Source: Actinomycetospora sp.
Lineage (GTDB): Bacteria > Actinomycetota > Actinomycetes > Mycobacteriales > Pseudonocardiaceae
Length of the DNA: 64,000 nucleotides
Direction of reading: 5' to 3'
Assembly: GCF_036497585.1 (NCBI RefSeq)
Contig: NZ_DASXJD010000196.1
Location: forward strand, 14,235 to 78,234
Both the position numbers and the translations under genes were made by a program. A model generated the notes under the pieces. It made no database searches, was not told the origin of the DNA, and worked only from the letters and a program-made list of their open reading frames with translations. This document shows, in pieces, positions 17,209-33,408 of the stretch. Position 1 is the first letter of the stretch; the number at the start of each line of letters is the position of its first letter.

Positions 17209-18315
17209 TCACTGGTCGGGCGCGGTCCGGCTCTCCCGCAGATGGTCCAGGGTCGTCCCGTAGCGCTGCAGCACGGCGGCCCGCACGTCGGGGTCGGTCC
17301 GGGGCACCGGCTCGATGAAGACCTGGTCGAGGTCGTGGAACCGCTCGTGCAGCTCGTCGTCGAGACGCACGCAGGCCCGCTCGAGGTCGCCGGCCGTGAG
17401 CTCGTCGACGAAGTCGACCCGGGCGCAGAGCAGCACGGAGTCGGTGCCGGTGAGCATCGACTGCAGGTCCACGACGGCGACGACCTCGGGTGCCGCGTCG
17501 AGGTGCTCGTAGACCGCCTGGAGCACCCGCGGCTCCGCGGCCCGGCCGATGAGCAGCGCCTTGTTCGAGCTGCCGAGCGAGAACGCGACGCCGGCGAGCA
17601 GCAGACCGATGAGGACCGAGGCGATGCCGTCCCAGACCGAGGACCCGGTCGCGCGGTGCAGGGCCACGCCGATCGCGGCGAACGCGAGGCCGAGCAGCGC
17701 CGCGGTGTCCTCGAAGAGCACGCTCTTGACCGTCGGGTCGTCGGAGAGCGCGAGGTAGCGCCGCAGCGGCAGCCGGAGCTCCTGCTTCTCCCGCCAGACC
17801 TGCCGGACGGCCTGCTGCCAGGAGATGCCCTCGATGATCGCGGAGAGCCCGAGGACCGCGAACGCCACCCAGGCGTACTGCTCCTCGGCGGGGTCACGGG
17901 GGTTCTCGACGATCGTCGTGATGCCCTCGTAGATCGAGTAGGTCGCGCCGGTGACGAAGACCGACACCGCCGCGATCATCGACCAGAAGAAGCGCTCCTT
18001 GCCGTAGCCGAAGGGGTGGGTCCGGTCGGGCCGGCGCACCGAGCGCCGCAGGGCGGTGAACAGCAGCACCTCGGTGGTGCAGTCCGCCACCGAGTGGGCG
18101 GCCTCGGCGAGCATGGCCGACGAGCCGGTGAGGAGACCCGCCACGAGCTTGAGGACCCCGACCGCCGCGTTGGCGAGGAAGGCGAGGACCACCGAGAGCG
18201 TGCTCTGGCCCGAGGAGGACTCCCCGTCCTCGCGGCCCTCGTCGGTCGGGTCGTCCGGCTCGGGTCCGGCGGTGGCGTCCTCCGCGGTCCGGGAATCCGG
18301 GGGGCCGACGGTCAT
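17209..18315 (-). CDS. cation diffusion facilitator (CDF) family metal efflux transporter
   Basis: ATG 18315 (MTVGPPDS...). Translation AEAAHSVADCTTEVLLF, HPFGYGKERFFWS, and a C-terminal cytoplasmic domain. 368 aa. Confidence 0.9.
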   Translation of the reverse strand: MTVGPPDSRTAEDATAGPEPDDPTDEGREDGESSSGQSTLSVVLAFLANAAVGVLKLVAGLLTGSSAMLAEAAHSVADCTTEVLLFTALRRSVRRPDRTHPFGYGKERFFWSMIAAVSVFVTGATYSIYEGITTIVENPRDPAEEQYAWVAFAVLGLSAIIEGISWQQAVRQVWREKQELRLPLRRYLALSDDPTVKSVLFEDTAALLGLAFAAIGVALHRATGSSVWDGIASVLIGLLLAGVAFSLGSSNKALLIGRAAEPRVLQAVYEHLDAAPEVVAVVDLQSMLTGTDSVLLCARVDFVDELTAGDLERACVRLDDELHERFHDLDQVFIEPVPRTDPDVRAAVLQRYGTTLDHLRESRTAPDQ

Positions 18316-18404
18316 GGGCGTTCCTCCTGTTTCGTCCGCGACGACCGCTCTACCCGTTGCCGTCGGGCGCCACGCGATCGCCGGGAAACGTCTCGGCGCG
18401 GGCC

Positions 18405-18463
18405 TTGACGCAACCACATGGTTGCCATAGTTTGGGTCGCAACCGAGCAGTTGCGACAGGAGG
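18405..18463 (+). promoter_or_regulatory. promoter with two GCAAC-N-GTTGC operators and SD for the SRPBCC-ArsR-DUF899 operon
   Basis: TTGACG (18405-18410), then 17 nt, then TAGTTT (18428-18433). Palindrome GCAACCACATGGTTGC (18410-18425) lies between -35 and -10. A second palindrome GCAACCGAGCAGTTGC is at 18439-18454. AGGAGG (18458-18463) sits 5 nt before GTG 18469. Confidence 0.6.
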
Positions 18464-18468
18464 TCGAC

Positions 18469-18909
18469 GTGGCATTCCCGGACCGGATCGAACGGACCAT
18501 CGAGCTCGCCCACCCGCCGGAGCGGGTGTGGACCGCGATCACCACCGCCGAGGGCCTCGCCGCGTGGTTCGGCGACCGGGCCGAGATCGACCTGCGGCCC
18601 GGCGGCGCCGGCTCGCTCATCTGGACCGCCGAGGGCCACCACCAGGACCTGCGCATCGAGCGCGTCGAGGAGCCCACGGCCTTCGGCTTCACCTGGCGGA
18701 TCGACGGGCTGCCCCGGGAGGACCCGCGCCGTACCTACGTCGAGTTCACCCTCGAACCGATCCCGACGGGCACCCGGCTGCACCTCGTGGAGACCGGCTT
18801 CGCCCAGCTCGGGCCGGACGAGCACCGCGCGCACAGCGGCAACACCGACGGGTGGGACCACGAGCTCGGAGACCTCGCGGCCCATCTCGACGCCGTCCAT
18901 GCCGCCTGA
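18469..18909 (+). CDS. SRPBCC/Aha1-domain protein
   Basis: Translation VAFPDRIERTIELAHPPERVWTAITTAEGLAAWFG... GTG 18469 is preferred over the ATG at 18418, which lies inside the predicted promoter. Confidence 0.75.
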   Translation: MAFPDRIERTIELAHPPERVWTAITTAEGLAAWFGDRAEIDLRPGGAGSLIWTAEGHHQDLRIERVEEPTAFGFTWRIDGLPREDPRRTYVEFTLEPIPTGTRLHLVETGFAQLGPDEHRAHSGNTDGWDHELGDLAAHLDAVHAA

Positions 18910-19297
18910 GCGCAGCGCCGCCCAGCCCGGGGACGCCCAGCCCGGGGACGTCGAGGGGACCGCCGAGAGCACCGCCGAGGCGGTCTTCGCCGCCCTCGCC
19001 GACCCGACCCGGCGCGCGATCCTCGCCGACCTCGCGACCCACGGCCCGTCCACCGCGACCGACCTCGCGGGCCGGCTCCCGATCTCCCGCCAGGCCGTCA
19101 CCAAGCACCTCGACCGGCTGACCGGGGCGGCCCTGGTCAGCGTGGAGCCGGGGGAGCGGCGCCGCATCCGCCACCGCGTCCGGTCCGCCCCCATGCGCAC
19201 CGCGCAGCGCTACCTCGCCGCCCTGGCCCGCGACTGGGACGGCCCGCTCGCCGCCCTGCACGACCATCTCGATGCCACCGACCAGGAGGAGCCATGA
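18899..19297 (+). CDS. ArsR/SmtB family transcriptional regulator
   Basis: wHTH segment FAALADPTRRAILADLATHGPSTATDLAGRLPISRQAVTKHLDRL. The N-terminus contains a 15-bp tandem duplication (AQPGD x2, 18918-18947). Confidence 0.85.
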   Translation: MPPERSAAQPGDAQPGDVEGTAESTAEAVFAALADPTRRAILADLATHGPSTATDLAGRLPISRQAVTKHLDRLTGAALVSVEPGERRRIRHRVRSAPMRTAQRYLAALARDWDGPLAALHDHLDATDQEEP

Positions 19298-20001
19298 CCC
19301 TGCCCCCGATCGTCGACGCCGCCGCGTGGGAACGCGCCCGCGCCGACCTGCTCGCCGCCGAGAAGGACCTCACCCACGCCCGCGACGCGCTCGCGGCCCG
19401 CCGCCGGCGGCTGCCGATGACGCCCTTCGGAGCCCACCACGTCTTCACCACCCCGACCGGCCCGCGGACCCTGCTCGACCTGTTCGACTGCCGCGGGACG
19501 CTCGTGGTCTACCAGTTCATGGACCGCGGGCCCGACGCCTACTGCGGCGGCTGCACGTGGTTCACGGACAACGTCCCGGCCAGCGCGCCGCGCCTGCTCG
19601 CCGAGCACGACGTGACGTGGCTGCACGTGACGGACATGCCGCTCGAGCAGGCGCAGCACTACTGGCGGGAACGGGGGTGGACGCTGCCGGTGGTCTCCTC
19701 ACGGGGCACCACCTTCTCGGCCGACACCGGCGCCGGTGAGGGCTTCGGCTTCTCCGTGTTCGTCCGCGACGGCGACGCGGTGCACCGGACCTACGCGACG
19801 ACGGGGCGCGGGATCGAGCACCTCGCGTTCGTGACGACGCTGCTCGACCTCACCCCGCACGGCCGGGGGGAGGACTGGGAGGACTCCCCGGAGGGTGTCG
19901 AGCAGGTCCCCTCGGCGATGATGCCGAACCTGCTGACGACCGCGGACGTGGCCACCAGCTTCGGCCGGTTCCGCCGGGCGGGCGCACCCACGGGAGCGTG
20001 A
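19294..20001 (+). CDS. DUF899 thioredoxin-fold protein
   Basis: Translation RRRRLPMTPF..., LVVYQFM...CGGCTWFTDN, FVRDGDAVHRTYATTGRGIE. ATGA overlap with the ArsR gene. The last 30 aa or so look atypical. Confidence 0.8.
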   Translation: MTLPPIVDAAAWERARADLLAAEKDLTHARDALAARRRRLPMTPFGAHHVFTTPTGPRTLLDLFDCRGTLVVYQFMDRGPDAYCGGCTWFTDNVPASAPRLLAEHDVTWLHVTDMPLEQAQHYWRERGWTLPVVSSRGTTFSADTGAGEGFGFSVFVRDGDAVHRTYATTGRGIEHLAFVTTLLDLTPHGRGEDWEDSPEGVEQVPSAMMPNLLTTADVATSFGRFRRAGAPTGA

Positions 20002-20674
20002 TCAGCGCCCACACCCCGACGACGAGCGCCGCCTCGACGAGCAGGTACCACGGCCACGGCCCGAGCACGTCGAGCAGCGACGCCGTCTCGGGCTTGTGGC
20101 CGAGGTAGCCGTAGTTCGCCCCGGTCACCACGTTGACGACCTGCGCCGGCACCGCCCACAGCACCGTCGCGCCGAGGGCGACCCGGTAGTCCCACCACGT
20201 CGGGTGCCGGCGCAGACCCCAGGTGAGCAGGACCGCGATCCACACGACGAGGACGTGGTCGCTGAAGAACACCAGGAACGACGGCGCCGGGAAGTCGGCG
20301 CCGCCCAGCGCCGGGGTGAGCAGCGCCTGCACGGAGAGCGTGAGGCCCCAGTAGTAGGTCAGCACCGTCGCCCACCGCTGCCCGGACACGACGGCCCACG
20401 CCGCGGCGTAGGGCGCGAGGTCGGAGAGCTGCAGGGGCAGGGTGAGCCCGGGACGGGCCGGGTCGAACGCGGCGACCTGGTAGCCGGCGGTGACGAGGGT
20501 GAGGGCGCCCGCGAGGACGAGCCCGGCGACCCGCACCGTCCGGGCGTCGCCGCGGCGCGCGAGCTCGACGAGCCCGATCGCCCCGAGCACGGTGACCGTG
20601 AGGACGGCGAGGTGCGACGTGCCCCAGGGCAGGAAGATCCTGTCGGGGGCGGCGAGGGGCACGACGGCGTGCAC
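19850..20674 (-). CDS. YwaF/TIGR02206-like integral membrane protein
   Basis: Translation LPLQLSDLAPYAAAWAVV, FFSDHVLVVWIAVLL. About 7 helices. The last 45 codons or so are low-complexity and overlap the 3' end of the DUF899 gene. Confidence 0.6.
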   Translation of the reverse strand: MHAVVPLAAPDRIFLPWGTSHLAVLTVTVLGAIGLVELARRGDARTVRVAGLVLAGALTLVTAGYQVAAFDPARPGLTLPLQLSDLAPYAAAWAVVSGQRWATVLTYYWGLTLSVQALLTPALGGADFPAPSFLVFFSDHVLVVWIAVLLTWGLRRHPTWWDYRVALGATVLWAVPAQVVNVVTGANYGYLGHKPETASLLDVLGPWPWYLLVEAALVVGVWALITLPWVRPPGGTGRSWWPRPRSSAGSASSPRGPARHPPGSPPSPPPGRAG

Positions 20675-20714
20675 CGGGCCGATCGTCCTCGCCCTCCTCG
20701 CGGCCGCGGAACCC

Positions 20715-21917
20715 TCAGGCGGCCAGCGCGACCGGATCCTCGCCGCTCGCCGCGTCCGCCCCGACCTCCGCGCCCGCGACCACCGCCCACGCCGCGATCG
20801 GCACCGCGACCGCGCCGAGCGTGAGGTCGGCGCTCCACACCGCGCCGGTCTCGACCAGCGCGCGGGCCAGCGAGAGCAGCGAGGGCGCCACCAGCACCGC
20901 CGCAGCGCACCACGCGACCGCCACCTCCGACGCCGGCCGCAGCCACCACAGCGCCGCGGCGAGCAGCAGCGCCGCCGCGAGCCCGATCACGACGATGCCG
21001 ACCGAGAGCCCACGCTCGTCGGTCACCTTCGCCGCCACGTGCAACGGCGAGAACCGGGCGAGCCCGCCGAGCAGGAACGGCACGATCAGCACCAGCCACA
21101 CCAGGCCCGCGACGCCCCCGACCAGCAACCCCCGCCGCCGTCCCGCCCGCAGCCCCACGGCCACCGCGACGATCGCGACGACGAGCGCCAGGTGCGGCCG
21201 GGTGCAGGTGGCCACCCCGAGCGCCACCGCGGCCGCCGTCAGGAGCCGCACCGACCCGCCGTCGGGACGAGCCGTCCGCAGCGTCCACACCGCCGCGGCG
21301 AGGGCGGGCACGGTCCCGGCGACCAGGTCATCGCCGATGAGGAACTCGCGCCACACCTCGAGGCCGCCGGCGACGGTCAGCAGCCACACCAGGGTCGGGC
21401 CCGGCCGCAACCGCCAGCCGCCGTGCAGCAGCGGCAGCAGCAGCGCGGTCCACGCGACGTTCTGCCAGGCCGCCGAGCCGAGCAGGAACCGGAACGGGGC
21501 CGCCAGCACGAGCGCCCCGGGCAGCGGGGTGATCGGGTTCCCCAGGTAGGTCGTCGCGGCGTAGGGGTAGCGGCCCGCGGCGAGCTCGCCCAGGGCCACG
21601 TCGAGGGCGTTCGCGCGGTCGCTGCCGACCCCGAGGACGAGGTCGTCGGCGGGGGGCACGCCGACGACGAACACCGTGGTGAGCGTCCCCAGGCAGGCCA
21701 CGACGAGCACGGGCAGCACCCACCACGGCGCACGGGCCAGCAGCTCCGTCGCCGCCGGGAGCAGCAGCGCCACCACCCCGGCCGCGACGGCGTACCACGC
21801 GGCCGCGGGCGGCCCGCCCAGGTTCATCGCGGTGTGGGTGGACACCACGACGAGGACGGCGGCGAACGCGACGGGGCCGCAGGCGCCCGCCACCGACCTA
21901 CATGAAGCTGGTGTCAC
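20715..21917 (-). CDS. polytopic membrane protein, GT-C/GT87-like (putative glycosyl- or acyl-transferase)
   Basis: About 10-11 helices. The first loop (GSDRANALDVALGELAAGRYPYAATTYLGNPITPLPGALVLAAPF) resembles the D...Y...PFTYPP loop of DUF2029/GT87 proteins. Start is uncertain (21917 or ATG 21827). Confidence 0.55.
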   Translation of the reverse strand: MTPASCRSVAGACGPVAFAAVLVVVSTHTAMNLGGPPAAAWYAVAAGVVALLLPAATELLARAPWWVLPVLVVACLGTLTTVFVVGVPPADDLVLGVGSDRANALDVALGELAAGRYPYAATTYLGNPITPLPGALVLAAPFRFLLGSAAWQNVAWTALLLPLLHGGWRLRPGPTLVWLLTVAGGLEVWREFLIGDDLVAGTVPALAAAVWTLRTARPDGGSVRLLTAAAVALGVATCTRPHLALVVAIVAVAVGLRAGRRRGLLVGGVAGLVWLVLIVPFLLGGLARFSPLHVAAKVTDERGLSVGIVVIGLAAALLLAAALWWLRPASEVAVAWCAAAVLVAPSLLSLARALVETGAVWSADLTLGAVAVPIAAWAVVAGAEVGADAASGEDPVALAA

Positions 21918-23049
21918 CGTCGTACTCGGAGGGGTCCCACGCGTCCGGGTGCGCCAGGGTGTCGGCGAGGTCCGGGTCGGTCGTGCGGTAGTAGAAGGAC
22001 CAGGCGGCCTTGGTGATCCGGTAGGGCGCGACGTCGTCGAAGCCGCTCATCTTCGGGATGTCGCAGCCGTTGTGCTCGAGCATGCCCAGCCGGGCGTCGG
22101 CGCTGCGCTCGGCCGCCGCGCGGGCGAGGCCGGGCAGCAGGTCGACCGCGTCCTCGACGGTCTGGTAGTCGACGATCTTCATGCTGCGCATGCCCGTCGG
22201 GCGGGTGTACTCCTTGACCACGCAGAACGCGCGGATCGACCCGGCCCGCTCGGCGGTGTAGACCCAGAGCCGCCCGGCGCGCAGCGGGATGCGGTAGTGC
22301 CATTCGAGGGTCGCCCGGTCCCGGACGGCCAGCAGCATGTCCGCGTGCTTCGCGCGCAGCTCCTCCCAGAATGCGTCGAACCGGTCGTCGAAGCCGCGGG
22401 CCTCGACGATCTCGACGCCCTCCGGCGGCCCGGCCAACTTCCGGGCGGTGGCGCCCTCCTTGACGGCGAGCCCCGCCGCGGCCGGCACGGAGAGGGCCCC
22501 CGCCAGGGGGATCCCCTTCATCGCCAGCACCTCGCGGGTGAAGGACCGACGGTTGGTGACGACGTAGGCGGCCCTGCCCCAGTCCCCGAGCGGGACCCGG
22601 GTGCCGTACGCCTGCCAGATCGTCGTCGCGCCCACCCCGACGTTGGAGCTGGCGACGAAGTCGGCCTGCTCCTGCTCGAAGTACTCGTCCATGAGCAGCG
22701 CCGCGTAGCCGCGGTGCTCCTCGGTGACGGCCCAGGCGAGACCGTTGCCGCAGATCTTCTCCTCGCCGTGCAGCACGTAGGGCGAGGGCACGTTGGTGAC
22801 CGCCCCGACGATCGACCCGTCCGGGTCCTCGAGGACCCACCCGACGGTCCAGCGGTCCTTCAACCGGGGCCAGAGCGGGTTCTCCTCGAACAGCGCCCGC
22901 CGGTCCTCCGGCGAGAAGATGTTCGTCAGGAACCGCGACTCGAGCCCGTGCATGGCGGGGAAGTCGTCGAAGGTCGCCGGCCGCAGCTCGGGCGGTTCGA
23001 CGAAGGCCGTCGGCGCGGCGGCCGCTGTCCCGGTGGACTCCGCGCTCAC
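21898..23049 (-). CDS. two-domain GNAT-fold acyltransferase-like protein
   Basis: 383 aa. N-terminal GNAT-like core (GWVLEDPDGSIVGAV...LAWAVTEEHRGYAALLMDEYF) and a second GNAT-like half (LWVYTAERAGSIRAFCVVKEY...MKIVDYQ). 4-bp overlap with the P450 stop. Confidence 0.65.
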   Translation of the reverse strand: MSAESTGTAAAAPTAFVEPPELRPATFDDFPAMHGLESRFLTNIFSPEDRRALFEENPLWPRLKDRWTVGWVLEDPDGSIVGAVTNVPSPYVLHGEEKICGNGLAWAVTEEHRGYAALLMDEYFEQEQADFVASSNVGVGATTIWQAYGTRVPLGDWGRAAYVVTNRRSFTREVLAMKGIPLAGALSVPAAAGLAVKEGATARKLAGPPEGVEIVEARGFDDRFDAFWEELRAKHADMLLAVRDRATLEWHYRIPLRAGRLWVYTAERAGSIRAFCVVKEYTRPTGMRSMKIVDYQTVEDAVDLLPGLARAAAERSADARLGMLEHNGCDIPKMSGFDDVAPYRITKAAWSFYYRTTDPDLADTLAHPDAWDPSEYDGDTSFM

Positions 23050-24299
23050 GTGCCGGACACCTCCAGCGGCAGGGCGGTGAGCCCGCGCAGCCCGAGGTTC
23101 TCGCGCCAGGTCAGCGGCTCGTCGGTGAGCTCGATCGTCGGGAGCCGCCGCAGCAGCGTCTCGAAGCCGATGCGGCCCTCAAGGCGGGCCAGCGGCGCGC
23201 CGAAGCAGAAGTGCGCGCCCCACGCGAAGGCGACGTGGCGGTTGTCGGTGCGGGCCAGGTCGAGCCGGTCGGGGTCTCCGAAGCGCTGCGGGTCGCGGTT
23301 GGCCGACCCCATCACCGCGATCACCGCCTGCTTCTTCCCGATCTGCTTGCCCCCGAGCTCGAGGTCGCGGGGCGCGAGGCGGGCGGTGTGCTGGCTGGGG
23401 CTCTCGAAGCGCAGCAGCTCCTCCACCGCGGAGTCCATCAGCTCCGGGTGGGCGCGCAGCCGGGCCATCGCCTCGGGGTCGCGCAGCAGCGCGAGCAGCC
23501 CGTTGCCGAACAGGTTGGTGGTGGTCTCGAGACCGCCGACCATGGTGACGATGCAGTTGGCGACGATCTCCTCGGTGGTGAACCGGTCGCCGTCGACCTC
23601 GGCCTGGATGTAGGCCGAGACCAGCCCGTCCACCGGCTTCTCGCGCTGCGCCTCGACCTCCCTCGTGAAGTAGGCGATGAGGTTCTGCACCGCCTCGAGC
23701 ACGCCGCCGAGCCGCTCGGGGTTGTGCTGGAAGTTGCCCAGCATCTCGGCGAACGTCGTCGACCAGCGCTTGAGGTCCATGTGGTCCTCGACCGGCACGC
23801 CCAGGAGGTCGGTGGTGACCATCGCGGGCAGCGGGTCGGCGAAGTCGGCCATGAGCTCCATGTGGCCGTCGCCGCGGGCGAGGACCTGGTCGAGGAGCTG
23901 CTCACCGATCTCGGCGATGCGCTGGTCGAGCACCGCGACCCGCGCCGGGGTGAACGCCGCGCTCGCGAGCCGCCGGACCCGGGGGTGCTCCGGGGAGTCC
24001 ATGAACAGCATCATGCGGACCATCAGCTCGGCGACCGGCGCGACCTCCGGGACCCCGAGCAGCTCGAAGTACTCCGGCGGTGGGGTGCGGCGGGCCGAGA
24101 ACCGCTTCAGCACGGTCGTGACGTCGTCGTAGCCGGTGACCACCCAGGCGTGCAGGAACGGGTCCCAGTGCACCGGGTCGGTGGTGCGCAGGTTCTTGTA
24201 CAGCGGGTACGGGTCGGCCAGCACCTCGGGGTCGAGCAGCTCGGCGTAGCTGCGCGTCTCCTCCTCGAGCTCCGGGGCGACGGTGCTCTGCTCGGTCAT
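23046..24299 (-). CDS. cytochrome P450
   Basis: Heme-Cys loop FAWGAHFCFGAPLARLE, I-helix MVGGLETTTN, ExxR (ELLRFESP). ATGA overlap with the NRPS gene stop. Confidence 0.9.
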   Translation of the reverse strand: MTEQSTVAPELEEETRSYAELLDPEVLADPYPLYKNLRTTDPVHWDPFLHAWVVTGYDDVTTVLKRFSARRTPPPEYFELLGVPEVAPVAELMVRMMLFMDSPEHPRVRRLASAAFTPARVAVLDQRIAEIGEQLLDQVLARGDGHMELMADFADPLPAMVTTDLLGVPVEDHMDLKRWSTTFAEMLGNFQHNPERLGGVLEAVQNLIAYFTREVEAQREKPVDGLVSAYIQAEVDGDRFTTEEIVANCIVTMVGGLETTTNLFGNGLLALLRDPEAMARLRAHPELMDSAVEELLRFESPSQHTARLAPRDLELGGKQIGKKQAVIAVMGSANRDPQRFGDPDRLDLARTDNRHVAFAWGAHFCFGAPLARLEGRIGFETLLRRLPTIELTDEPLTWRENLGLRGLTALPLEVSGT

Positions 24300-26122
24300 G
24301 CGCTCGCCTCCTGCTGCTGCTGGGCGACCTCGGCGGCGATCGCCGAGACCGTCGGGCCGCGGAAGAGCTGCCGCAGCGTCATCTTGACCCCGTAGCGCTG
24401 CCGGACCCTCGAGACCACCTGCATGGCCAGCATCGAGTGGCCGCCGAGCAGGAAGATGTTGTCGTCCTCGCCGACCTGGCCGAGGTTGAGCAGCTCGGCG
24501 ATCAGCTCGCCGAGCCAGACCTTGACGTCGTCGGTGCTCTCCCCGGCCGGCGACGCCGCCGGCTCGGCGACCACGGCCGGCCGGGGCAGGGCCGCCCGGT
24601 CGAGCTTGCCGTTGGGGGTCATCGGCAGCGCGTCCAGGGTCACGACGTGGGCGGGCACCATGTAGTCGGGCAGCTGCGCGGCGAGGAAGGCGCGGACCTC
24701 CGCGGCGGCCGGCGGCTGGTCGCCCGAGGCGACGACGTAGGCCACCAGTTCCCGCTCGCCCTCGCCCGACTCGTCACCCAGCACGGTCACGGTGCCGGCG
24801 CCGACGCCGGGGGCCTGGGTGAGCCAGCTGGTGATCTCCGCCGGCTCGATCCGGTAGCCGCGGACCTTGACCTGGTCGTCGAGGCGGCCGAGGAAGATCA
24901 GCCGGCCGTCGTCCAGGCGCCGGACGCGGTCACCGGTGCGGTAGGCCCGCACCGTCTCGCCGTCGCCGGTGCGCACGGTGACGAAGCGCTCGGCGGTGCG
25001 CTCGGGGTCATGGCGGTAGCCGCGCCCGACGTGCGGCCCGGCCAGCACCAGCTCACCCGGCTCGCCCTCGCCGACCGGGCGCTGGGCCTCGTCGAGCAGC
25101 AGCGCGAGCGTGCCCGGGATCGGCCGGCCGATCGAGGGCGGGCCGGGGTGGTTCCCCTCCGGGCCGACCTCGCCCGAGGTCGCCACCACCGTGCACTCGG
25201 TCGGCCCGTAGTTGTTGACCAGGGTGAACGGCAGCCCCGCCAGCGGCCGGCGGTTGAGCCGCTCCGCCCCGGTCAGCAGGGTGCGCAGCGCGGTGTGGGC
25301 CGGCCACTGGGCCGCGATGAGCTGCTCGGCGAGCAGTGTGGGCGCGAAGCCGATCGTGATCTGCTTCTCGACCAGCCAGTCCTGGAGCAGCTGGGGCGAG
25401 CGGTGGGTCCCCTCGTCGGCGACGTGCAGCGCCGCGCCGGCCGCCAGCGGCGGCCAGATCTCCCAGACCGCCGCGTCGAAGCCGAGCCCGGCCACCTGCG
25501 AGGCGCGGTCGTCGCTGCTCACCTCGAACGCCGCGTTGTGCCAGTCGACCAGGTTCGCCAGGTTGGCGTGGGTGATCTCGACGCCCTTGGGGCGCCCGGT
25601 GCTGCCCGAGGTGTAGATCACGTACGCCAGGCTGTCCGGTCCGATGTGCGGATCCGCCGGCGTCTGCGGCGCCGGGACCAGGCTGCGCGGCTCGTCGAGG
25701 TCGATCACCGTCCACGGCCCGGCCGGCAGGGTGCCGGCGCGCTCGTGGTCGGTGAGCACGACCGCGGTGGCCGCGTCGCCCAGGATGTACTCGACCCGGT
25801 CGGCGGGGGTGGCCGGATCCAGCGGCAGGTACGCCGCCCCGGCCTTCATCACCGCCGCCGCCGCCAGGACGTAGCGCGCGGAGCGGGGCAGCAGGACGGC
25901 CACGCAGGACCCGGGGCGGGCGCCCGCGGCCTGCAGGGCCGCGGCCAACCGGTCGGCGCGGTCGTCGAGCTCCCCGTACGTCAGCGTCGTGTCCGGGCCC
26001 GTGACCGCGACGCGGTCGGCGGCACTCGCGCCGTGGGCGGCGATGCGCGCGGGCACCGGGACGGACGTGGCGGGCGCCTGCGCACTCGGGCGGGCGGGTG
26101 GCTCGACGGTGTCTGCCCTCAT
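24296..26122 (-). CDS. stand-alone NRPS adenylation-thiolation (A-T) didomain protein, predicted Leu-activating
   Basis: ATG 26122 (MRADTVEPP...). A3 YVIYTSGSTGRPKGV, A4 FDAAVWE, A5 NNYGPTE, A7 YRTGD, A8 GRLDDQVKVRGYRIE, A10 PNGKLDR, PCP LGGHSMLA. Hand alignment to GrsA gives the code D-A-W-F-L-G-N-V-V-K. No C, E, TE or R domain. Confidence 0.92.
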   Translation of the reverse strand: MRADTVEPPARPSAQAPATSVPVPARIAAHGASAADRVAVTGPDTTLTYGELDDRADRLAAALQAAGARPGSCVAVLLPRSARYVLAAAAVMKAGAAYLPLDPATPADRVEYILGDAATAVVLTDHERAGTLPAGPWTVIDLDEPRSLVPAPQTPADPHIGPDSLAYVIYTSGSTGRPKGVEITHANLANLVDWHNAAFEVSSDDRASQVAGLGFDAAVWEIWPPLAAGAALHVADEGTHRSPQLLQDWLVEKQITIGFAPTLLAEQLIAAQWPAHTALRTLLTGAERLNRRPLAGLPFTLVNNYGPTECTVVATSGEVGPEGNHPGPPSIGRPIPGTLALLLDEAQRPVGEGEPGELVLAGPHVGRGYRHDPERTAERFVTVRTGDGETVRAYRTGDRVRRLDDGRLIFLGRLDDQVKVRGYRIEPAEITSWLTQAPGVGAGTVTVLGDESGEGERELVAYVVASGDQPPAAAEVRAFLAAQLPDYMVPAHVVTLDALPMTPNGKLDRAALPRPAVVAEPAASPAGESTDDVKVWLGELIAELLNLGQVGEDDNIFLLGGHSMLAMQVVSRVRQRYGVKMTLRQLFRGPTVSAIAAEVAQQQQEASA

Positions 26123-26477
26123 CAGTCTCCGATCACACAGGTGGGCCGTGGTGCACGGCGGGCCCGGGCGTGGGCGGCGGCGGCGCCGACCACGGGGACG
26201 TCCGCTTCCGTGAATCGATCCAGGGCGGCCGGGAGACGGCGGCGAGCCGGGGACATCACTGCTCCCGCAGAGGACACGCCTACTCCCTTTGGCCAATCCG
26301 GACCCTAGCAACGTGACGCGTGGCGCCCGCCGAGGTTGTCCGGGTGCGTGATCACGACCCGGCTCGTCGGCACACGACCCCTTGACAACGAACGGACCCG
26401 CACCGCGACACGGGTGCCCCAGCCGACCGTGACACGATGCGGGCGCTTTCGTCGTCGACGGGGAGGAGCCCCGGAGC

Positions 26478-28478
26478 GTGTCCACCGGCCTCCGTGAGCC
26501 GACGGTCCTGATCGTCTCGCACCGTCGTGTCGACCTCCTCGACCGGGCCCTGGCCGGGGTCGAGAAGTGGCTGCCCGAGGCCCGCGTCCTGGTGTGGGAC
26601 AACCGTTCGACGGACTCGCCCGCGGTCGCCGAGCTCGCCGCCCGGCGTCCGGACGTGGAGTGGACGCTGTCGGAGTCGAACGTCGGGTACGCGATCGCGG
26701 TCAACCGGCTCATGGCGCGGGTCCCCGACGGCGACGTCCTGCTGCTGGACCCCGACGTCGAGCTGCTGGGGCCGCTGACCCGGGTGCGCGAGGTGCTCGC
26801 CGAGCCCGGCGTCGCCGTCGTCGCCCCCACCGGGGACGGCCTCGCCGACGACGGCGACGAGCCCTGGGACGTGGCCCGCCGCCCGCAGACCGTGCTGCGC
26901 GACCTCGCGGCGGTGGCCGGGCTCGCCCCGGCGCTGCGGGGGAGGCCGGGCGGCGAGCTCTACCGGCGCGCCCCGGAGGAGGTCGACGGCTACCTCACCG
27001 GCGGCTGCCTGCTCGTGGCCCGCGAGGCGTGGGACGCGCTCGGCGAGCTCGACGACTGGTTCTTCGACGGCGGCGAGGACGCGGCCTGGCAGCGCCTGGC
27101 CCGCGAGCACGGGTGGTCGCTGCGGCTGGTCGACGACGACGGCCCGCAGGTCCGCCGCACGCCCGCGCGCGGCGACGACCCCTGGGCGGCGCGGAACGAG
27201 GACCTCCGCCGCGCGGCCCGGGCCCTCGTCCTGGGTACCGGGGCCGATCACGGTCCCGGCGGCAACGGCGGCCGCGGCCGGGTGTTCTCGGCCGCCGCGC
27301 TGGTCCTCGACCGGGTGCAGCCCTCGCAGCGCGCGCGGCGACGCGAGCGCCGGACCGTGGAGGCCCGCCGGTCCGGCGGGCGCCCGACCATCGTGATCGC
27401 CACGAACGGCGTCGCGCTCGGCGGCGCGGAACGCCAGCGCGTCCAGCTCGCGAACGAGCTCGTCGCGCGCGGCCACCCCGTCGTCGTCGTGTGCATGCAG
27501 CACCTCGGGATCCTCCTGGGCGAGCTCGACCCCCGGGTCCGTCTGGTGTTCCAGCCCTGGTGGCAGCCGGTGGTCGACGTCGGCACCGAGGACGCGATCG
27601 TCATCGCCGGCGGCACCCGCACCGAGATCGGGTTCGCACTCGGGTGGCGGGCCCAGGCCCGCGTCGCCGGGGGACGGCGCTGGTGGCTGCCCGCGCTGCA
27701 CGATCCGGCCGAGCCCGACCACCCCACCTTCTCCGAGGTCCAGGCCCGGGCGCTGCGCAGCGCCGACGGGATGCTCGTCCTCTCCGCGCAGCACCACCGC
27801 GACCTGACCCGCCACCAGCGCCTGCACGACACCGTCATGGTCGCGCCGAACGGCGTCCCGGCGGCCGAGCCGCTGCCGTTCCGCGCCGACCCGGCGGGCC
27901 CGCTGCGCTTCGGGATGCTGTCGCGGATCAAGGAGTACAAGAACCCGATGCTGCTGGTCCACGCGCTCGACGCGCTGGGCGCGGACCGGCGGCGGGAGTG
28001 GACGCTGGACATCTTCGGCGAGGGCCCCGACCGGGAGCGGCTCACCGCGGAGTCGCCGGCGCACCTGCGCGACCGGGTCTGGTGGCGGGGCCCGTCCCCG
28101 GGGCCGGACCACGCGTTCGCCGAGTTCGACGTGCTGTGCGTGCCGAGCGGGTTCGAGGCGTTCCCGCTGGCGATCGTCGAGGCCCTCACCCGCGGGATGC
28201 CGGTCATGGCCTCGGCCAGCGGCAGCGTCGCCGAGATGCTCGACCACGGTCGGGCCGGCGTCGTCGTCGAACCGGTCACCCGCGAGGCCTGGGCCGCCGC
28301 GCTCGACGGCGTGCTGGCCGACCGGAACCGCGTCGCCGCCCTCGGCGAGGCCGGTCGGCGCTGGGGGCTGGAGAACTACACGGTCTCGGCGATGACCGAC
28401 GCCTACCAGCGGGCGTTCGCGCGGGTGCTGGGCCGGCCGATCCCCGGCGGCCCGGAGGGCGACGCCGCGGTGCTGTGA
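26478..28478 (+). CDS. bifunctional glycosyltransferase (N-terminal GT2, C-terminal GT4/GT1-type)
   Basis: GT2 part: VLIVSHRRVDLLDRAL...VWDNRSTD...LLLDPDVEL. GT4 part: IVIATNGVALGGAERQRV...FGEGPDRERL...PSGFEAFPLAIVEALTRGMPVMAS. GGGAGGAG lies 9 nt before GTG 26478. Confidence 0.85.
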   Translation: MSTGLREPTVLIVSHRRVDLLDRALAGVEKWLPEARVLVWDNRSTDSPAVAELAARRPDVEWTLSESNVGYAIAVNRLMARVPDGDVLLLDPDVELLGPLTRVREVLAEPGVAVVAPTGDGLADDGDEPWDVARRPQTVLRDLAAVAGLAPALRGRPGGELYRRAPEEVDGYLTGGCLLVAREAWDALGELDDWFFDGGEDAAWQRLAREHGWSLRLVDDDGPQVRRTPARGDDPWAARNEDLRRAARALVLGTGADHGPGGNGGRGRVFSAAALVLDRVQPSQRARRRERRTVEARRSGGRPTIVIATNGVALGGAERQRVQLANELVARGHPVVVVCMQHLGILLGELDPRVRLVFQPWWQPVVDVGTEDAIVIAGGTRTEIGFALGWRAQARVAGGRRWWLPALHDPAEPDHPTFSEVQARALRSADGMLVLSAQHHRDLTRHQRLHDTVMVAPNGVPAAEPLPFRADPAGPLRFGMLSRIKEYKNPMLLVHALDALGADRRREWTLDIFGEGPDRERLTAESPAHLRDRVWWRGPSPGPDHAFAEFDVLCVPSGFEAFPLAIVEALTRGMPVMASASGSVAEMLDHGRAGVVVEPVTREAWAAALDGVLADRNRVAALGEAGRRWGLENYTVSAMTDAYQRAFARVLGRPIPGGPEGDAAVL

Positions 28479-28511
28479 TCCCGCGAGGAGGATGTCGGCG
28501 AGTCGCCCTCG

Positions 28512-28595
28512 TCCTCCCCGATGGATGGTCTCGACCGGGCAGATGGGCTCGCAGGCGCCGCAGTCGATGCGCGCCGCGGGATGGATGTCGAGCAT
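28512..28595 (-). pseudogene. ferredoxin remnant (second-cluster half only)
   Basis: MLDIHPAARIDCGACEPICPVETIHRGG matches the ...[25 protein letters not shown]... half of actinobacterial FdxA-type ferredoxins. The N-terminal cluster motif is missing, and the frame then runs antisense into the GT gene. Confidence 0.45.
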
Positions 28596-28762
28596 TCGCA
28601 GCCCTCGAGGCGCCGACGATGACGACCCGCGGGGGCGGCCGCACCGTCCTTCGGGGCCCAGCCCTGCCGTGCCGCTTCGCGTGCCGGGGTCCGTGGCGGG
28701 GGCGGACACGCCGCGGAGGATCGAGCGGCAGACGGTCCCGTCCCAGTCTGCGAGGTTCCCCC

Positions 28763-29608
28763 ATGACCAGCACGTCGCGCCCCGTCACCCTTCCGTCCGG
28801 AGAGGCCATCCCCGCAATGGGTCAGGGCACGTGGCACCTGGCCGAGAGGCCGGCTCGCCGATCCGACGAGATCGCCGCGCTCCGACTGGGGCTCGACCTC
28901 GGGCTGACCCTTGTCGACACCGCCGAGATGTACGCCGACGGGGCGACTGAAGTGCTGGTGGGCGAGGCGATCGCAGGCCGTCGTGATGAGGTGTTCCTCG
29001 TCGACAAGGTGCTTCCGCACCACGCGACGCGCACCGGCACGGTCCGGGCCTGCCAGGCCAGCCTCGCGAGGCTGGCCGTCGACCACATCGATCTCTACCT
29101 GCTGCACTGGCGCGGCCAGGTCGCGCTGGCCGAGACCGTCGCGGGCTTCGCCGATCTGCAGGCAGCAGGGCTGATCCGCTACTGGGGGGTGAGCAACCTC
29201 GACGTCGACGACCTGATCGACCTGGCCGCCGTGCCGGGCGGGGACCAGGCGCAGACCGACCAGGTTCTCTTCAACCTGGTCCGTCGCGGAGCGGAGTACG
29301 CCCTGCTGCCGTGGCTCTCCGCCCACGGCATTCCCGCGATGGCGTACTCGCCGATCGAGCAGGGCCGTCTGCTGCGCCACCCCGTGCTCACCGAGGTCGC
29401 GCAGCGCCACTCCGCCACGGCCGCCCAGATCGCATTGGCGTGGGTACTGGCCCACGACGGTGTCAGCGCCATCCCGCGCACCGGAAGACCCGAGCACGTG
29501 CGGGCCAACGCCGAGGCGCGGGGGATCGGTCTCGGCCGCGATGACCTCTACCTGCTCGACCAGGCGTTCCCGCCGCCGGTCCAGCCGCGCAGGCTGGAGG
29601 CACTCTGA
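28763..29608 (+). CDS. aldo/keto reductase
   Basis: ATG 28763. Translation GQGTWHL..., LVDTAEMYADG, DLYLLHW, YSPIEQG, IPRTGRPEHV. Confidence 0.9.
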   Translation: MTSTSRPVTLPSGEAIPAMGQGTWHLAERPARRSDEIAALRLGLDLGLTLVDTAEMYADGATEVLVGEAIAGRRDEVFLVDKVLPHHATRTGTVRACQASLARLAVDHIDLYLLHWRGQVALAETVAGFADLQAAGLIRYWGVSNLDVDDLIDLAAVPGGDQAQTDQVLFNLVRRGAEYALLPWLSAHGIPAMAYSPIEQGRLLRHPVLTEVAQRHSATAAQIALAWVLAHDGVSAIPRTGRPEHVRANAEARGIGLGRDDLYLLDQAFPPPVQPRRLEAL

Positions 29609-29742
29609 CGGCAACCCGGCGATCACGCCGAACAACCGCGACGAACGGATTCGATCCCGACCCGTGCCCCTGGAACCCCAGGAGATCGCCGTCGTGGCGC
29701 CCGGCCGCGGCGGGTGTGGGCGGCGGCTGCGCCGTCGGGTCG

Positions 29743-29779
29743 AGTCCGGTCCGTCGATTTCAGCCCCTCGGACCGGACT
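29743..29779 (+). terminator. hairpin downstream of the aldo/keto reductase gene
   Basis: Perfect 11-bp arms AGTCCGGTCCG (29743-29753) and CGGACCGGACT (29769-29779) with a 15-nt loop. No T-tract. Confidence 0.35.
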
Positions 29780-29788
29780 GCCACGCGG

Positions 29789-29813
29789 TTGACACGGCCG
29801 AGACTGGAGTCCC
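29789..29813 (+). promoter_or_regulatory. TTGACA -35-like hexamer followed by a DosR/DevR-like box
   Basis: TTGACA at 29789-29794. GAGACTGGAGTCCC at 29800-29813 fits GGGAC-N4-GTCCC with one arm mismatch. It lies 20 nt before ATG 29834. Confidence 0.25.
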
Positions 29814-29833
29814 AGACGTCAGCGGGAGGGCGC

Positions 29834-30001
29834 ATGACCACGACCTCGAAGCCCGCGGCCGCTCCGCCACCCGGGCTGCACCAGCACGGCCACGAACTGC
29901 AGGCCTTCGGCAGGGTGCGGCGGACCGGGGAGACGACGGCGTGGCTCGTCGCCGAGCACCTGGTCGACACCGCCCTGGTCCGAGCCGACGACGGGCGCTG
30001 A
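29834..30001 (+). CDS. small hypothetical protein (55 aa) immediately upstream of zwf
   Basis: GGGAGGG SD before ATG 29834. Translation MTTTSKPAAAPPPGLHQHGHELQAFGRVRRTGETTAWLVAEHLVDTALVRADDGR. Stop is 3 nt before the zwf start. Confidence 0.3.
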   Translation: MTTTSKPAAAPPPGLHQHGHELQAFGRVRRTGETTAWLVAEHLVDTALVRADDGR

Positions 30002-30004
30002 CCT

Positions 30005-31468
30005 GTGGTCGATCCGTGTATGCCCGGCCCGCACGTCCTGGTCGTGCTCGGGGCGACGGGCGACCTGGCGCGGCGCAAGCTCTTCCCCGCGCTCTATCGC
30101 CTCTACCAGCTAGACCTGCTCCCGCGCGGCTTCCGCATGGTGTGCTCGGGGCGCACCGAGCCGGACACGACGGGTGCGTTCCTCGAATTGGTGCGCGTGG
30201 CGATCGAGCGGCGCCATGGCCCGGTCGACCCGCAGGTGTGGTTGGGCTTCGATCGGCGGATCACGTTCGTCACCCTGTCCGACGACCGGGGCGCGGCGCT
30301 CGAGAAGGCCGTTGCCTTCGCAGCCGCTGCACTCGGCCCGAACGCCGAGCGCTGCTACTACCTCGCAGTACCGCCGGCGGCGACGGAGTCCGTCGTTCGC
30401 ATGCTCGGATCCTTCACGGCGGGCCGACCGACGAAGATCGTTCTGGAGAAGCCGTTCGGCCGCGACCTGGCCTCGGCCCGGCGGTTGAACGCCGTCCTGC
30501 ACGCGGTCGTCGATGAGCGGCACATCTACCGGATCGACCACTTCCTGGGTAAGGAGGCGGTGCAGAACATCCTGGCCCTCCGCTTCGCCAACGGGCTCTT
30601 CGAGCCGGTCTGGAACCACCGGCACGTGTGCTACGTGCAGATCGACGTGCCCGAGGAGATCGACATCCAGGGCCGGGCGGAGTTCATGGAGTCGACGGGG
30701 ACGCTACGCGACATGATCTCGACGCACCTGTTCCAGCTGCTCGGATTGGTGGCCATCGAGCCCCCGTCGCGCATGGACGGCGACTCCCTCAACCACGAGA
30801 TGACGAAGGTCTTCCGCGCTATCCGCCCCGTGGACCCGGACCGCGTGGTCTACGGCCAGTACGAGGGCTACCGCGACGAGCCGGGTGTGGACCGGGCGTC
30901 GGTCGTGGAGACCTTCGTCGCGATGGAGGTCTACGTCGACGACTGGACCTGGATCGGTGTGCCGTTCCACCTGCGGACCGGCAAGGCGCTCGCCGAAGGC
31001 AGGCGCACCATCACGATCGGCTTCCGCGAGCCACCGCTCAAGGTCTTCCCCGGCGACGTCGACGACACCTGCAACGAGCTGGTGATCGAGCTGAGCGAGG
31101 ACCCGCGGATCTTCGCCGACGTCCGGTCCAAGGTCCCCGGTCCCGACTTCCGGCTGGCCCGCGCCCGGATGCGACTCGACCTCCTGGAGTCCTTCCCCCA
31201 GGCCGAGCCGCTCGAGGCCTACGAGCGGCTGCTGCTCGACGTCCTACGCGGCGACACCACCCTGTTCCTGCACACGGAGGCGACGGAGCTGCTCTGGGGG
31301 CTGTTCGACCCGCTGCTTCGCCATCCGCCGAAGACGATCCCCTACCCACGGCATTCGTGGGGTCCCACCGAGGCATTGCGCCTCCCCGGCCGGCGCGGCT
31401 GGCGGTTGCCGGAGACGGACGCCGAGACGGACGGGGAAACCGACGCGAAGGGCGACGGCGGAGGCTGA
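30005..31468 (+). CDS. zwf: glucose-6-phosphate dehydrogenase (stand-alone paralogue, no opcA/pgl nearby)
   Basis: GATGDLARRKLFPALY, EKPFG, RIDHFLGKE, and a C-terminal acidic repeat tail ETDAETDGETDAKGDGGG. Start is 30005 (GTG) or ATG 30020. Confidence 0.9.
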   Translation: MVDPCMPGPHVLVVLGATGDLARRKLFPALYRLYQLDLLPRGFRMVCSGRTEPDTTGAFLELVRVAIERRHGPVDPQVWLGFDRRITFVTLSDDRGAALEKAVAFAAAALGPNAERCYYLAVPPAATESVVRMLGSFTAGRPTKIVLEKPFGRDLASARRLNAVLHAVVDERHIYRIDHFLGKEAVQNILALRFANGLFEPVWNHRHVCYVQIDVPEEIDIQGRAEFMESTGTLRDMISTHLFQLLGLVAIEPPSRMDGDSLNHEMTKVFRAIRPVDPDRVVYGQYEGYRDEPGVDRASVVETFVAMEVYVDDWTWIGVPFHLRTGKALAEGRRTITIGFREPPLKVFPGDVDDTCNELVIELSEDPRIFADVRSKVPGPDFRLARARMRLDLLESFPQAEPLEAYERLLLDVLRGDTTLFLHTEATELLWGLFDPLLRHPPKTIPYPRHSWGPTEALRLPGRRGWRLPETDAETDGETDAKGDGGG

Positions 31469-31717
31469 CCTCGCCCGCGACGGGCACGCGGTCGTGAAGG
31501 ACCGCCTCGCGCAGCGCCTGGTCGTCCTGCGTCGCCCCTCCGAAGCCTTCGAGAGGCCGGGCCCATCCCGGTGGGGCCGTGCCGGTTCAGCGGTGTCCGC
31601 CACGACGGGCGATCGTCGACGCGGCATCACCGTGCCCTCGGGGACCGAGCGGTGGCGGGTCGATTCACGCTGCGAAGCCGAAGCAGAAGGAGGTGCCGGC
31701 GGGCGAGCGTGGCCACC

Positions 31718-31924
31718 ATGACGTCTTCGAACCGGGCGGACCCGTGTCCCTCGCCGCTCGAGTCCAACGATCTGTCGGACGGTCGCGCCGTCCACCTCAG
31801 CGGCGGGATGGACATGCTCACAGCGCCCTACCGGTGGCAGGTGCAAATCTTCATCGTGATCGCCGTGGCGGGCGTGGTGTTCCTCGTCCAGCTCCTGCGC
31901 AGGCGGGCGGCAGGGCATGAATGA
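31718..31924 (+). CDS. small single-pass membrane protein (68 aa)
   Basis: ATG 31718. TM helix QVQIFIVIAVAGVVFLVQLL. 8-bp overlap with the next gene. Start is uncertain. Confidence 0.35.
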   Translation: MTSSNRADPCPSPLESNDLSDGRAVHLSGGMDMLTAPYRWQVQIFIVIAVAGVVFLVQLLRRRAAGHE

Positions 31925-32558: not shown

Positions 32559-32691
32559 GGCGCAGCCGTGGGAACGAAGCCCGGCACGACGAGAAGGCGC
32601 AGTCGGCAGTTCGACGCCGAGTGGTCCGTGAACGACTCGTACATCCGCCCGACCCGCCGCCCCCCACGGAGGCGATCATGCTTGTAGCCGT

Positions 32692-33156: not shown

Positions 33157-33364
33157 TGGATCGACAACATCCTGCACGGCCTGGGCACCGGCATCAGCCC
33201 GGAGTGGCAACTGCGGGCGGCAGCGTCGGCTTCGCGGGACAGGCCGGGCCCGCCTGGTGCCGCCGAGCAGCACCCGATCCACCCGACGGGCCGAGCCCGT
33301 GGCGGCGAATCGCTGCTCGCGGGCCGGTCCGGATCGCCGGCGGGCTTGCCAGGGTGGACCCGGA

Positions 33365-33384
33365 GGTGGGCGGCACCGCCCACC
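33365..33384 (+). promoter_or_regulatory. perfect 9-2-9 palindrome in the leader of Hsp20 copy 1
   Basis: GGTGGGCGG CA CCGCCCACC. It lies 13 nt upstream of the AAGGAGG SD (33398-33404) and 25 nt upstream of GTG 33409. Confidence 0.4.
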
Positions 33385-33408
33385 GTCGGCCTGGATCAAG
33401 GAGGACAC

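Follow-up and report, generated by a model that had tools for sequence, protein, structure and literature searches.

What does a bacterium make with an amino acid-activating enzyme that has no peptide assembly line beside it? The question is raised by a locus in a 64,000-nucleotide stretch of DNA from Actinomycetospora sp. (contig NZ_DASXJD010000196.1, positions 14,235 to 78,234), which is referred to here as the window and has a G+C content of 74%. On the minus strand of the window, genes for an adenylation-thiolation (A-T) didomain of nonribosomal peptide synthetase (NRPS) type, a cytochrome P450 and a 383-residue protein with two GNAT folds (protein X) follow each other closely, divergent from the gene of a fused glycosyltransferase (GT), the GT2-GT4 fusion. 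Our analysis shows that the functional unit is a portable cassette of A-T, P450 and X, accompanied here by the divergent GT2-GT4 fusion. We propose, with roughly even credence, that the cassette attaches a leucyl or hydroxyleucyl group to a glycan or glycoconjugate by means of X. The original prediction for this locus had been an envelope-modification system encoded by a five-gene operon, in which two further membrane proteins and the logic of Dlt-type D-alanylation take part. Of this prediction, the carrier-protein-dependent decoration linked to glycosyltransferases is upheld, whereas our results speak against an operon of five genes, against a part for the membrane proteins and against a Dlt mechanism.

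A portable cassette of A-T, P450 and X

The gene layout is as originally described. All six open reading frames (ORFs) in question are present in the ORF list at the positions claimed for them, and a check of the junctions returned the same overlaps, gap and divergent region. The A-T gene (24296-26122) overlaps the P450 gene (23046-24299) by 4 bp, and the P450 gene overlaps the X gene (21898-23049) by another 4 bp. The X gene in turn overlaps by 20 bp the gene for a 400-residue polytopic membrane protein, TM400 (20715-21917), and a gap of 40 bp separates the latter from the gene for a TMEM164/YwaF-like integral membrane protein (19850-20674); all five are on the minus strand. The 20-bp overlap depends on the choice of start codon, as homologues of TM400 begin at the position of GTG 21893, which leaves a gap of 4 nt after the X stop codon. 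The A-T gene and the plus-strand gene of the GT2-GT4 fusion (26478-28478) diverge across a 355-bp spacer (26123-26477), where their promoters are presumed to lie. A promoter scan of the region from 19 to 29 kb, this spacer included, gave zero matches to the sigma-70 consensus. Two terminator-like sites were found in the same region, both within coding sequence and not above the level of shuffled sequence. The whole window was also scanned with Rfam for leaders and riboswitches, such as a leucine T-box, and only a tRNA-Leu gene matched.

Conservation defines the cassette. Gene contexts were examined at individual loci of X homologues and then in an 80-locus scan at one genome per species. The co-occurrence of the three genes was tallied by tblastn with the window proteins over 84 related loci, including a subset of 51 ‘full’ loci with at least 6 kb of flanking sequence on both sides. 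The 91 related species belong to the Actinomycetota, Planctomycetota, Acidobacteriota, Eremiobacterota, Verrucomicrobiota and Gemmatimonadota and include the alphaproteobacterium Roseomonas. Almost all of the X-carrying species are soil metagenome-assembled genomes; two carriers of the cassette, Actinomycetospora sp. TBRC 11914 and Roseomonas sp. KE2513, are cultured strains. The three genes are co-conserved, standing adjacent in 49 of the 84 loci, or 33 of 51 when only full loci are counted. Actinomycetota, Planctomycetota, Acidobacteriota, Eremiobacterota and Roseomonas all contribute such loci, and the order of the three genes differs among them. Within the Actinomycetospora clade, the GT2-GT4 fusion is inherited together with the trio: the two are divergently arranged in L007, L009/L089, L010 and L011, and their surroundings on the chromosome are of at least two kinds.

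The 608-residue A-T protein matches AMP-binding (PF00501, 9.6e-82), AMP-binding_C and PP-binding (PF00550, 1.6e-14) in Pfam, and scores 408 bits with the amino-acid adenylation model TIGR01733 (cut-off 317). It has both elements that define an NRPS A-T didomain, an amino-acid adenylation domain and a phosphopantetheine-binding carrier domain, and the phosphopantetheine site in its translation reads GGHS. A longer upstream ORF was rejected as a high-G+C artefact in favour of the start at ATG 26122, which has a GGAG Shine-Dalgarno sequence. The Stachelhaus code of the A domain, read by hand at ten specificity residues with the GrsA numbering, is DAWFLGNVVK, which we take to be the canonical leucine code. 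It is identical in 34 of 37 P450-adjacent A-T orthologues, across phyla. From this code the A domain is predicted to load L-leucine, the amino acid named in the original prediction. In some acidobacterial loci (L054, L071, L082 and L052) there is a second A-T didomain with the code DLFFLCLIAK, for example at 13375-15078 of L054. Three more loci (L044, L070 and L074) carry an adenylating enzyme that lacks the usual Asp235 and has the code CFSAQAMARK. Sulfotransferase and carbamoyltransferase genes lie alongside these extra acidobacterial adenylating genes.

As the original prediction had it, the A-T protein does not belong to a conventional peptide assembly line. No condensation (C), thioesterase (TE), reductase (R) or MbtH-like element was found near the cassette by Pfam searches of the region’s proteins and a six-frame search for the MbtH motif, and no NRPS gene is found among the annotated genes of the window.

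The P450 (417 residues; PF00067, 5e-28) has an ETT acid-alcohol pair and an FxxGxHxCxG haem motif in its translation. Its best solved relative is BioI (3ejb, 1.2e-79), a P450 that acts on acyl groups bound to acyl carrier protein (ACP); PksS and PikC are also among its nearest solved relatives. The P450 is the most conserved member of the trio across phyla, where orthologues found by tblastn are 56-70% identical, compared with 44-62% for A-T and 28-57% for X. A second P450 gene in the window (15791-17065) is a resident gene, whose product is 36% identical to the cassette P450 in relatives; together with a NUDIX gene (14930-15781) it is conserved in Actinomycetospora genomes that do not carry the cassette.

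The GT2-GT4 fusion is a protein of 666 residues in which the GT2 part precedes the GT4 part. It matches Glycos_transf_1 (2.7e-26), Glyco_transf_4 (2.1e-8) and, weakly, Glycos_transf_2 (4.8e-5) in Pfam. The best PDB relative of its GT4 half is MshA (5.2e-10). Pfam and NCBIfam scores thus agree with the domain calls made originally for the A-T protein, the P450, the YwaF-like protein and this fusion, with a weak GT2 match. Two other readings of the gene set were considered and set aside. A mycothiol-like thiol pathway, which would combine a GT4 enzyme, a PIG-L deacetylase and a tandem-GNAT enzyme, does not fit the leucine code and the P450. A defence system was suggested only by weak GT4-conflict matches.

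Protein X, its family and the proposed transfer

Protein X gave zero matches to Pfam (E ≤ 0.01), NCBIfam (E ≤ 0.1) or PDB sequences, and its class is recognised by AlphaFold and Foldseek only. The AlphaFold model, built on 41 homologues (pLDDT 91.7, pTM 0.88), consists of two consecutive GNAT folds. With this model, Foldseek gave 309 PDB matches at E ≤ 0.001; N-myristoyltransferase (1.7e-13, TM 0.54) and Eis (2.4e-12) lead the list, and the tandem GNATs 2ozg, 3n7z and 2hv2 are near its top. The two-domain GNAT call of the original prediction therefore holds at the level of the fold, with no named family matched. N-myristoyltransferase and Eis bind acyl-pantetheine thioesters. Seven residues of X are invariant (R23, D29, E74, D75, R113, D294 and Q296), and four of them are in two acidic motifs, one per domain: GWVLED, with E74 and D75, and VDYQ, with D294 and Q296. 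In the alignment and the model, R113-G114 lies in the β4-α3 loop of the N-terminal domain only. This loop may correspond to the site where GNATs hold the pantetheine pyrophosphate. We propose that X, a soluble protein of an unclassified family, is a carrier-protein-dependent acyl or aminoacyl transferase, and consider it probable that its activity depends on a carrier protein in this manner.

The X family is large and unclassified, and it links glycan loci with the carrier chemistry of NRPS, polyketide synthase (PKS) or FkbH systems. When 1.84 billion representative proteins, clustered at 50% identity, were searched with a profile, 586 clusters matched with E ≤ 1e-30, a number that rose to 1308 with E ≤ 1e-10; tblastn against 72,556 plasmid records gave zero matches. 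A carrier loader is within range of X in 40 of the 51 full loci (A-T within 6 kb, or FkbH or KASIII within 3 kb). The relatives of X lie beside A-T didomains, or beside an ACP and an FkbH-domain protein, two kinds of carrier loading that are unrelated to each other. The FkbH-domain proteins score 271 and 288 bits with TIGR01686 (cut-off 147) and have a small DSL-motif carrier protein alongside; 4-bp gene overlaps occur in the FkbH-type cassettes L048, L068 and L087. In three loci KASIII is directly upstream of X. A neighbour-joining tree of X shows partial clustering by donor type that is not robust, with the KASIII-linked members in one clade and the FkbH-linked members in two or three.

In several proteins X is part of a larger polypeptide. 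It starts 20 residues after the ACP in a ketosynthase (KS)-ACP-X fusion (P0195), found in two independent assemblies, and it forms the end of C-A-T-TE-X fusions (P0140, P0143 and an ORF of L036). It is also fused to a CE4 deacetylase in P0156, inside an exopolysaccharide (EPS) locus; the X part of this fusion is the only one to give a match to Acetyltransf_9, a weak one (3.7e-5). The KS-ACP-X locus (L093, 5635-13507, and L094) consists of a divergent fatty-acyl-AMP ligase gene followed by genes for a desaturase, an ACP, a second desaturase and KS-ACP-X. It resembles cassettes for alkyne or alkene starter units, but with X as the terminal domain instead of a thioesterase.

The minimal cassettes of the family contain A-T, P450, X and a phosphopantetheinyl transferase (PPTase), and no TE, C or R domain was found in them. 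In 18 of the 84 loci, X or its block has as an immediate neighbour a sugar de-N-acetylase of one of two unrelated families, CE4 or PIG-L; 6 of the 7 FkbH-type cassettes are among these loci, and the arrangements CE4-X-ACP-FkbH and CE4-ACP-FkbH-X occur. This count and those of GT and EPS genes are lower bounds, obtained with single-pass HMMs whose seeds were drawn from the loci. In four phyla the cassette lies among polysaccharide genes. Its glycan neighbours are Bac_transf, Wzx-like, GT4, GT2, sulfotransferase and carbamoyltransferase genes in Acidobacteriota; Wza, Wzc, flippase, UDP-sugar dehydrogenase and FkbM methyltransferase genes in the Roseomonas isolate; GT4, epimerase, Wzz-kinase, UDP-sugar dehydrogenase and beta-helix protein genes in Actinomycetota; and GT4 in Phycisphaerae. 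In several loci of Actinomycetota a second double-GNAT-type gene (Acetyltransf_6/FemAB) follows X (L001, 11196-13573; L012, 11040-13624; L016, 11218-12342). An hhalign comparison of the X profile with a neighbouring FemAB-like protein found no similarity (probability 0.05%). A gene for an FAD-dependent monooxygenase comes next after the FemAB-type gene in L001 and L012, which suggests more tailoring or a second transfer.

A reaction sequence can be proposed from these observations. A host PPTase would activate the T domain, and the A domain, identified like the T domain by the search tools, would load it with its predicted substrate, L-leucine, as a thioester. The P450 would then oxidise the tethered leucine, hydroxylation being the simplest and likeliest guess. 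The N-terminal GNAT domain of X would bind the phosphopantetheine-linked thioester, and X would move the leucyl or hydroxyleucyl group to an amine or hydroxyl of a sugar in the glycan, glycolipid or glycoside made by the neighbouring glycosyltransferase, releasing the carrier. Gene context, domain fusions and fold all point to this last step. The transfer most likely takes place inside the cell because X is soluble and the A-T protein is cytoplasmic. The whole chemistry would then be cytoplasmic and would follow the logic of NodB, NodA and NodF, in which an acetyl group is removed and a special acyl group is added from a carrier. On whether a glycan or glycoconjugate serves as acceptor in this organism, we lean slightly to the side of doubt. 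We tentatively extend the proposal to the family, which may be a large, unrecognised group of off-loading transferases for NRPS and PKS carriers that graft hydroxyleucyl, glyceryl-derived or keto-acyl units onto de-N-acetylated or otherwise reactive sugars of EPS and glycoconjugates.

A number of observations weigh against the proposed transfer to a glycan. We infer the donor, the acceptor and the P450 reaction alike. GT or EPS genes are present at 25 of the 33 full trio loci, which is in line with the original prediction, but this figure is a raw count and glycosyltransferases are common genes. The remaining 8 of the 33 have no glycan gene detectable with our home-made HMMs. Several cassettes of Planctomycetota and Actinomycetota are solitary or lie amid transposases, which suits a diffusible small molecule equally well. 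No sugar N-deacetylase was found among the annotated genes of the window, and the CE4-X fusion was called just once, in a contig of 3.7 kb. Of the 51 full loci, 10 have a free-standing C domain no more than 6 kb from X, and a TE precedes X in the C-A-T-TE-X fusions. X need not be the releasing enzyme in such systems. GNATs normally use acyl-CoA, and X could instead N-acylate the tethered leucine. Finally, no P450 known to hydroxylate carrier-bound amino acids is named among the 60 best matches listed for the cassette P450.

Some of these observations would be accommodated if A-T, P450 and X, together with a PPTase, made a self-contained, diffusible metabolite from leucine that has no link to glycans. 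The product could be an N-acyl-hydroxyleucine, with X as a CoA-dependent N-acyltransferase in line with the usual acyl-CoA dependence of GNATs. It could also be a Leu-Leu dipeptide or diketopiperazine that X joins from two tethered leucines and the P450 subsequently oxidises, as in pulcherriminic acid. Such a metabolite is consistent with the minimal PPTase cassettes that have no glycan genes nearby (L002, L004, L008, L019, L025 and L033), and the C domains and C-A-T-TE modules of the acidobacterial versions suggest a peptide product. The cassette P450 also has a sub-threshold match to a model of cyclodipeptide-synthase-associated P450s (1.1e-55, 189 bits against a cut-off of 500), but this match is no better than those to many other P450 models. 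A free metabolite would leave unexplained the tight coupling of ACP-FkbH-X cassettes to CE4 deacetylases, the CE4-X fusion, the position of X immediately after the ACP in KS-ACP-X and the recurrent EPS context in four phyla. We consider such a metabolite, in either form, rather unlikely.

A different use of hydroxyleucine would be as a building block. A free-standing A-T didomain with a P450 is the classic arrangement for the supply of β-hydroxy amino acids, and the trio could serve a peptide synthetase encoded at another site by producing free hydroxyleucine, which X would release as a hydrolase (compare BpsD/OxyD/Bhp and NovH/NovI). NRPS modules do lie beside the trio in some acidobacterial loci. 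However, the annotated genes of the window lack such a synthetase, the known systems release their product with an α/β hydrolase and not with a GNAT, and GNAT-fold thioester hydrolases are, to our knowledge, not an established class. Hydrolysis also does not account for the pairing of X with FkbH-ACP and with deacetylases. This role for the trio seems to us the least probable of those considered.

If transfer by X to a glycan is correct, X would be a new release or transfer domain for natural-product enzymology, occurring both free-standing and fused to PKS or NRPS modules. Many orphan ‘NRPS-like’ calls that genome-mining tools cannot at present interpret, in the polysaccharide loci of Acidobacteriota, Planctomycetota and Actinomycetota, would then have an explanation. 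Soil bacteria of at least six phyla would decorate their surface glycans with non-ribosomally activated, P450-oxidised leucine, and leucine or hydroxyleucine in amide or ester linkage to exopolysaccharide would be predicted. We know of no description of such a glycan modification or of such a termination of an assembly line.

Resident membrane-protein genes and the variable region

Two membrane proteins are encoded downstream of X. The TMEM164-like protein matches PF14808 (1.6e-44, 152 bits against a cut-off of 25) and TIGR02206 (168 bits against 75), and its family is annotated as membrane acyltransferases. TM400 and 30 homologues (31 members in all) gave zero significant matches in Pfam. Searches of X and TM400 against Pfam, NCBIfam and PDB sequences placed neither in a family. 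In a Foldseek search with the AlphaFold model of TM400 (pLDDT 85.7), the seven best PDB matches are all GT-C folds, but weak ones (E 0.016-0.5, TM 0.35-0.47); AftA, GPI mannosyltransferase I, PIG-U, ArnT, STT3 and AftB are the top names. D100, inside a GSDR motif, is invariant in the family. The earlier call of a GT-C-like membrane protein is plausible but not established: the names agree, and the matches are weak and without a Pfam counterpart.

TM400 has homologues across the whole genus Actinomycetospora. Its gene adjoins that of TMEM164 in A. corticicola, with a 4-bp overlap, and in A. endophytica (pair at 10001-11925 of L090 and 10001-12091 of L091). Neither genome carries X, the P450, the A-T gene or the GT fusion, and both have the same synteny as the window downstream of the pair, with the resident P450 and NUDIX genes (14.9-19 kb of the window) and, in A. 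corticicola, also the cation-efflux gene. The membrane genes are outside the conserved unit because they form an adjacent pair in Actinomycetospora genomes that have no trio. Apart from the window, they lie behind the trio in just its two nearest relatives (L009/L089 and L010), where TM400 and the TMEM164 homologue are about 2 kb apart. The pair across Actinomycetospora may itself be an envelope-modifying system.

The original prediction had assigned these membrane proteins the task of carrying the amino acid across the membrane and attaching it to an envelope polymer, in a five-gene system of Dlt type. In the window and in its two closest relatives the start of TM400 and the stop codon of X are a few bases apart at most, which makes co-transcription likely, and there is no terminator-like site between X and TM400. 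The annotation of the TMEM164 family as acyltransferases would also fit. The distribution of the genes argues against such a system. In addition to standing as a conserved pair in trio-less genomes, TM400 and TMEM164 are missing at some 80 further X loci; two of these, L007 and L011, carry the GT fusion and the trio at other chromosomal sites. In L089 an opposite-strand gene of 733 codons splits the pair. Homologues of the other Dlt components are also missing. Neither MBOAT (DltB) nor DltD was among the Pfam and NCBIfam matches of any scanned protein of the region, and DltA models score below their cut-offs on the A domain (TIGR01734, 243 bits against 560; PRK04813, 257 against 476). We find it improbable that the five genes work as a Dlt-like system.

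The five-gene ‘operon’ is a chimera, in which an accessory four-gene module has been inserted directly upstream of a resident two-gene pair. TM400 and TMEM164 are probably co-transcribed with the cassette by read-through, and the cassette is independent of them. Tight spacing and overlaps between genes are thus no proof of a functional unit; here they arose where an accessory cassette was inserted upstream of resident genes.

The insertion is part of a larger difference. In A. corticicola, about 2.3 kb, with CSD, DUF5997 and LysR-like genes, separates the gene of an M20 peptidase from that of TM400. The window homologues of these two genes are at 37116-38429 and 20694-21632, and about 15 kb of the window (21.9-37.1 kb) stands in place of the 2.3 kb; the shared flank, from the M20 peptidase onward, resumes at 37.1 kb. 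This lineage-specific region (21898-37051) contains X, the P450, the A-T gene, the GT fusion, an aldo-keto reductase (AKR) gene (28763-29605), a G6PD gene, a GreA-like gene and two HSP20 genes, and ends at tRNA-Leu(GAG) (36967-37051). The G+C content drops to 0.70-0.72 over 30-38 kb. The region looks like a variable region or integration hot spot.

Two other parts of the window deserve comment for their annotation. The ORF of 663 codons called ‘cation efflux’ (17209-19294) is over-extended: its relatives have 363-367 residues and homology is confined to 17236-18264. Homologues of two other genes, AHSA1/Polyketide_cyc2 (18469-18900) and MarR (18956-19294), lie on the opposite strand within the extension. 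Further along, a stretch of 81-84% G+C (52250-53750) lies just downstream of a gene (51001-52251) for a protein like cysteinyl-tRNA synthetase, whose KMSKS and HIGH-type motifs make it look like MshC, the mycothiol ligase. A long ORF rich in Ala, Pro, Gly and Arg (51618-53747) overlaps this stretch.

Comparison with known systems

In agreement with the original prediction, no characterised equivalent of the gene set was found in Pfam, NCBIfam, the PDB or the full-text literature searched, and comparisons are with systems that share parts of it. The first half of the cassette resembles BpsD/OxyD/Bhp, NovH/NovI and NikP1/NikQ, in which a stand-alone A-T protein is directly followed by a P450 with translational coupling. 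The third gene of the cassette encodes a tandem GNAT instead of an α/β-hydrolase thioesterase, and there is no peptide or aminocoumarin assembly line near it. With the Dlt system the cassette shares an adenylating enzyme that loads an amino acid on a carrier and the idea of decorating an envelope polymer. Unlike in Dlt, a single protein of NRPS type contains both the A and the T domain, the code is that of leucine and an oxidation step is added. The transferase here is a soluble tandem GNAT, and the reaction is probably cytoplasmic.

The wfpC-G O-antigen locus of Flavobacterium psychrophilum is predicted to carry out an ACP-dependent N-acylation of an amino sugar (PMC6519341). It is similar in that a polysaccharide locus has its own ACP, acyl-building enzymes and a predicted N-acylating transferase. 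It differs in its PglD-type transferase and in the origin of its acyl group from fatty-acid-type synthesis, and is itself only predicted (PMC6519341). The uncharacterised sets of AMP-ligase, ACP and FemAB associated with exosortase/PEP-CTERM likewise place an adenylating enzyme, a carrier and a double-GNAT-type protein in EPS loci. However, the corresponding ligase model TIGR03098 scores 230 bits on the A-T protein against a cut-off of 592, and X has no FemAB or Acetyltransf_6 match. N-myristoyltransferase and Eis share the two-GNAT fold with X (TM about 0.5), of which only the N-terminal domain keeps the R-G loop with its putative pyrophosphate-binding role. Identities are 10-15% with no sequence homology detected, and the proposed donor of X is a protein-bound thioester instead of CoA.

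In the synthesis of Nod factors, which has the GT2 enzyme NodC beside it, a chain of N-acetylated amino sugars is made by a glycosyltransferase, the CE4 deacetylase NodB frees an amine and NodA transfers a special acyl group to it from the carrier NodF. X has no sequence relation to NodA or to any named family in Pfam and NCBIfam. The donor here would be an NRPS-loaded, P450-modified amino acid where that of Nod factors is a fatty acid, and the window has no deacetylase. The X family nevertheless shares the arrangement of deacetylation followed by acylation, in the CE4-X-ACP-FkbH and CE4-ACP-FkbH-X cassettes and in the CE4-X fusion. Nod-factor N-acylation is the nearest working analogy for the proposed action of the cassette, closer than Dlt-type D-alanylation.

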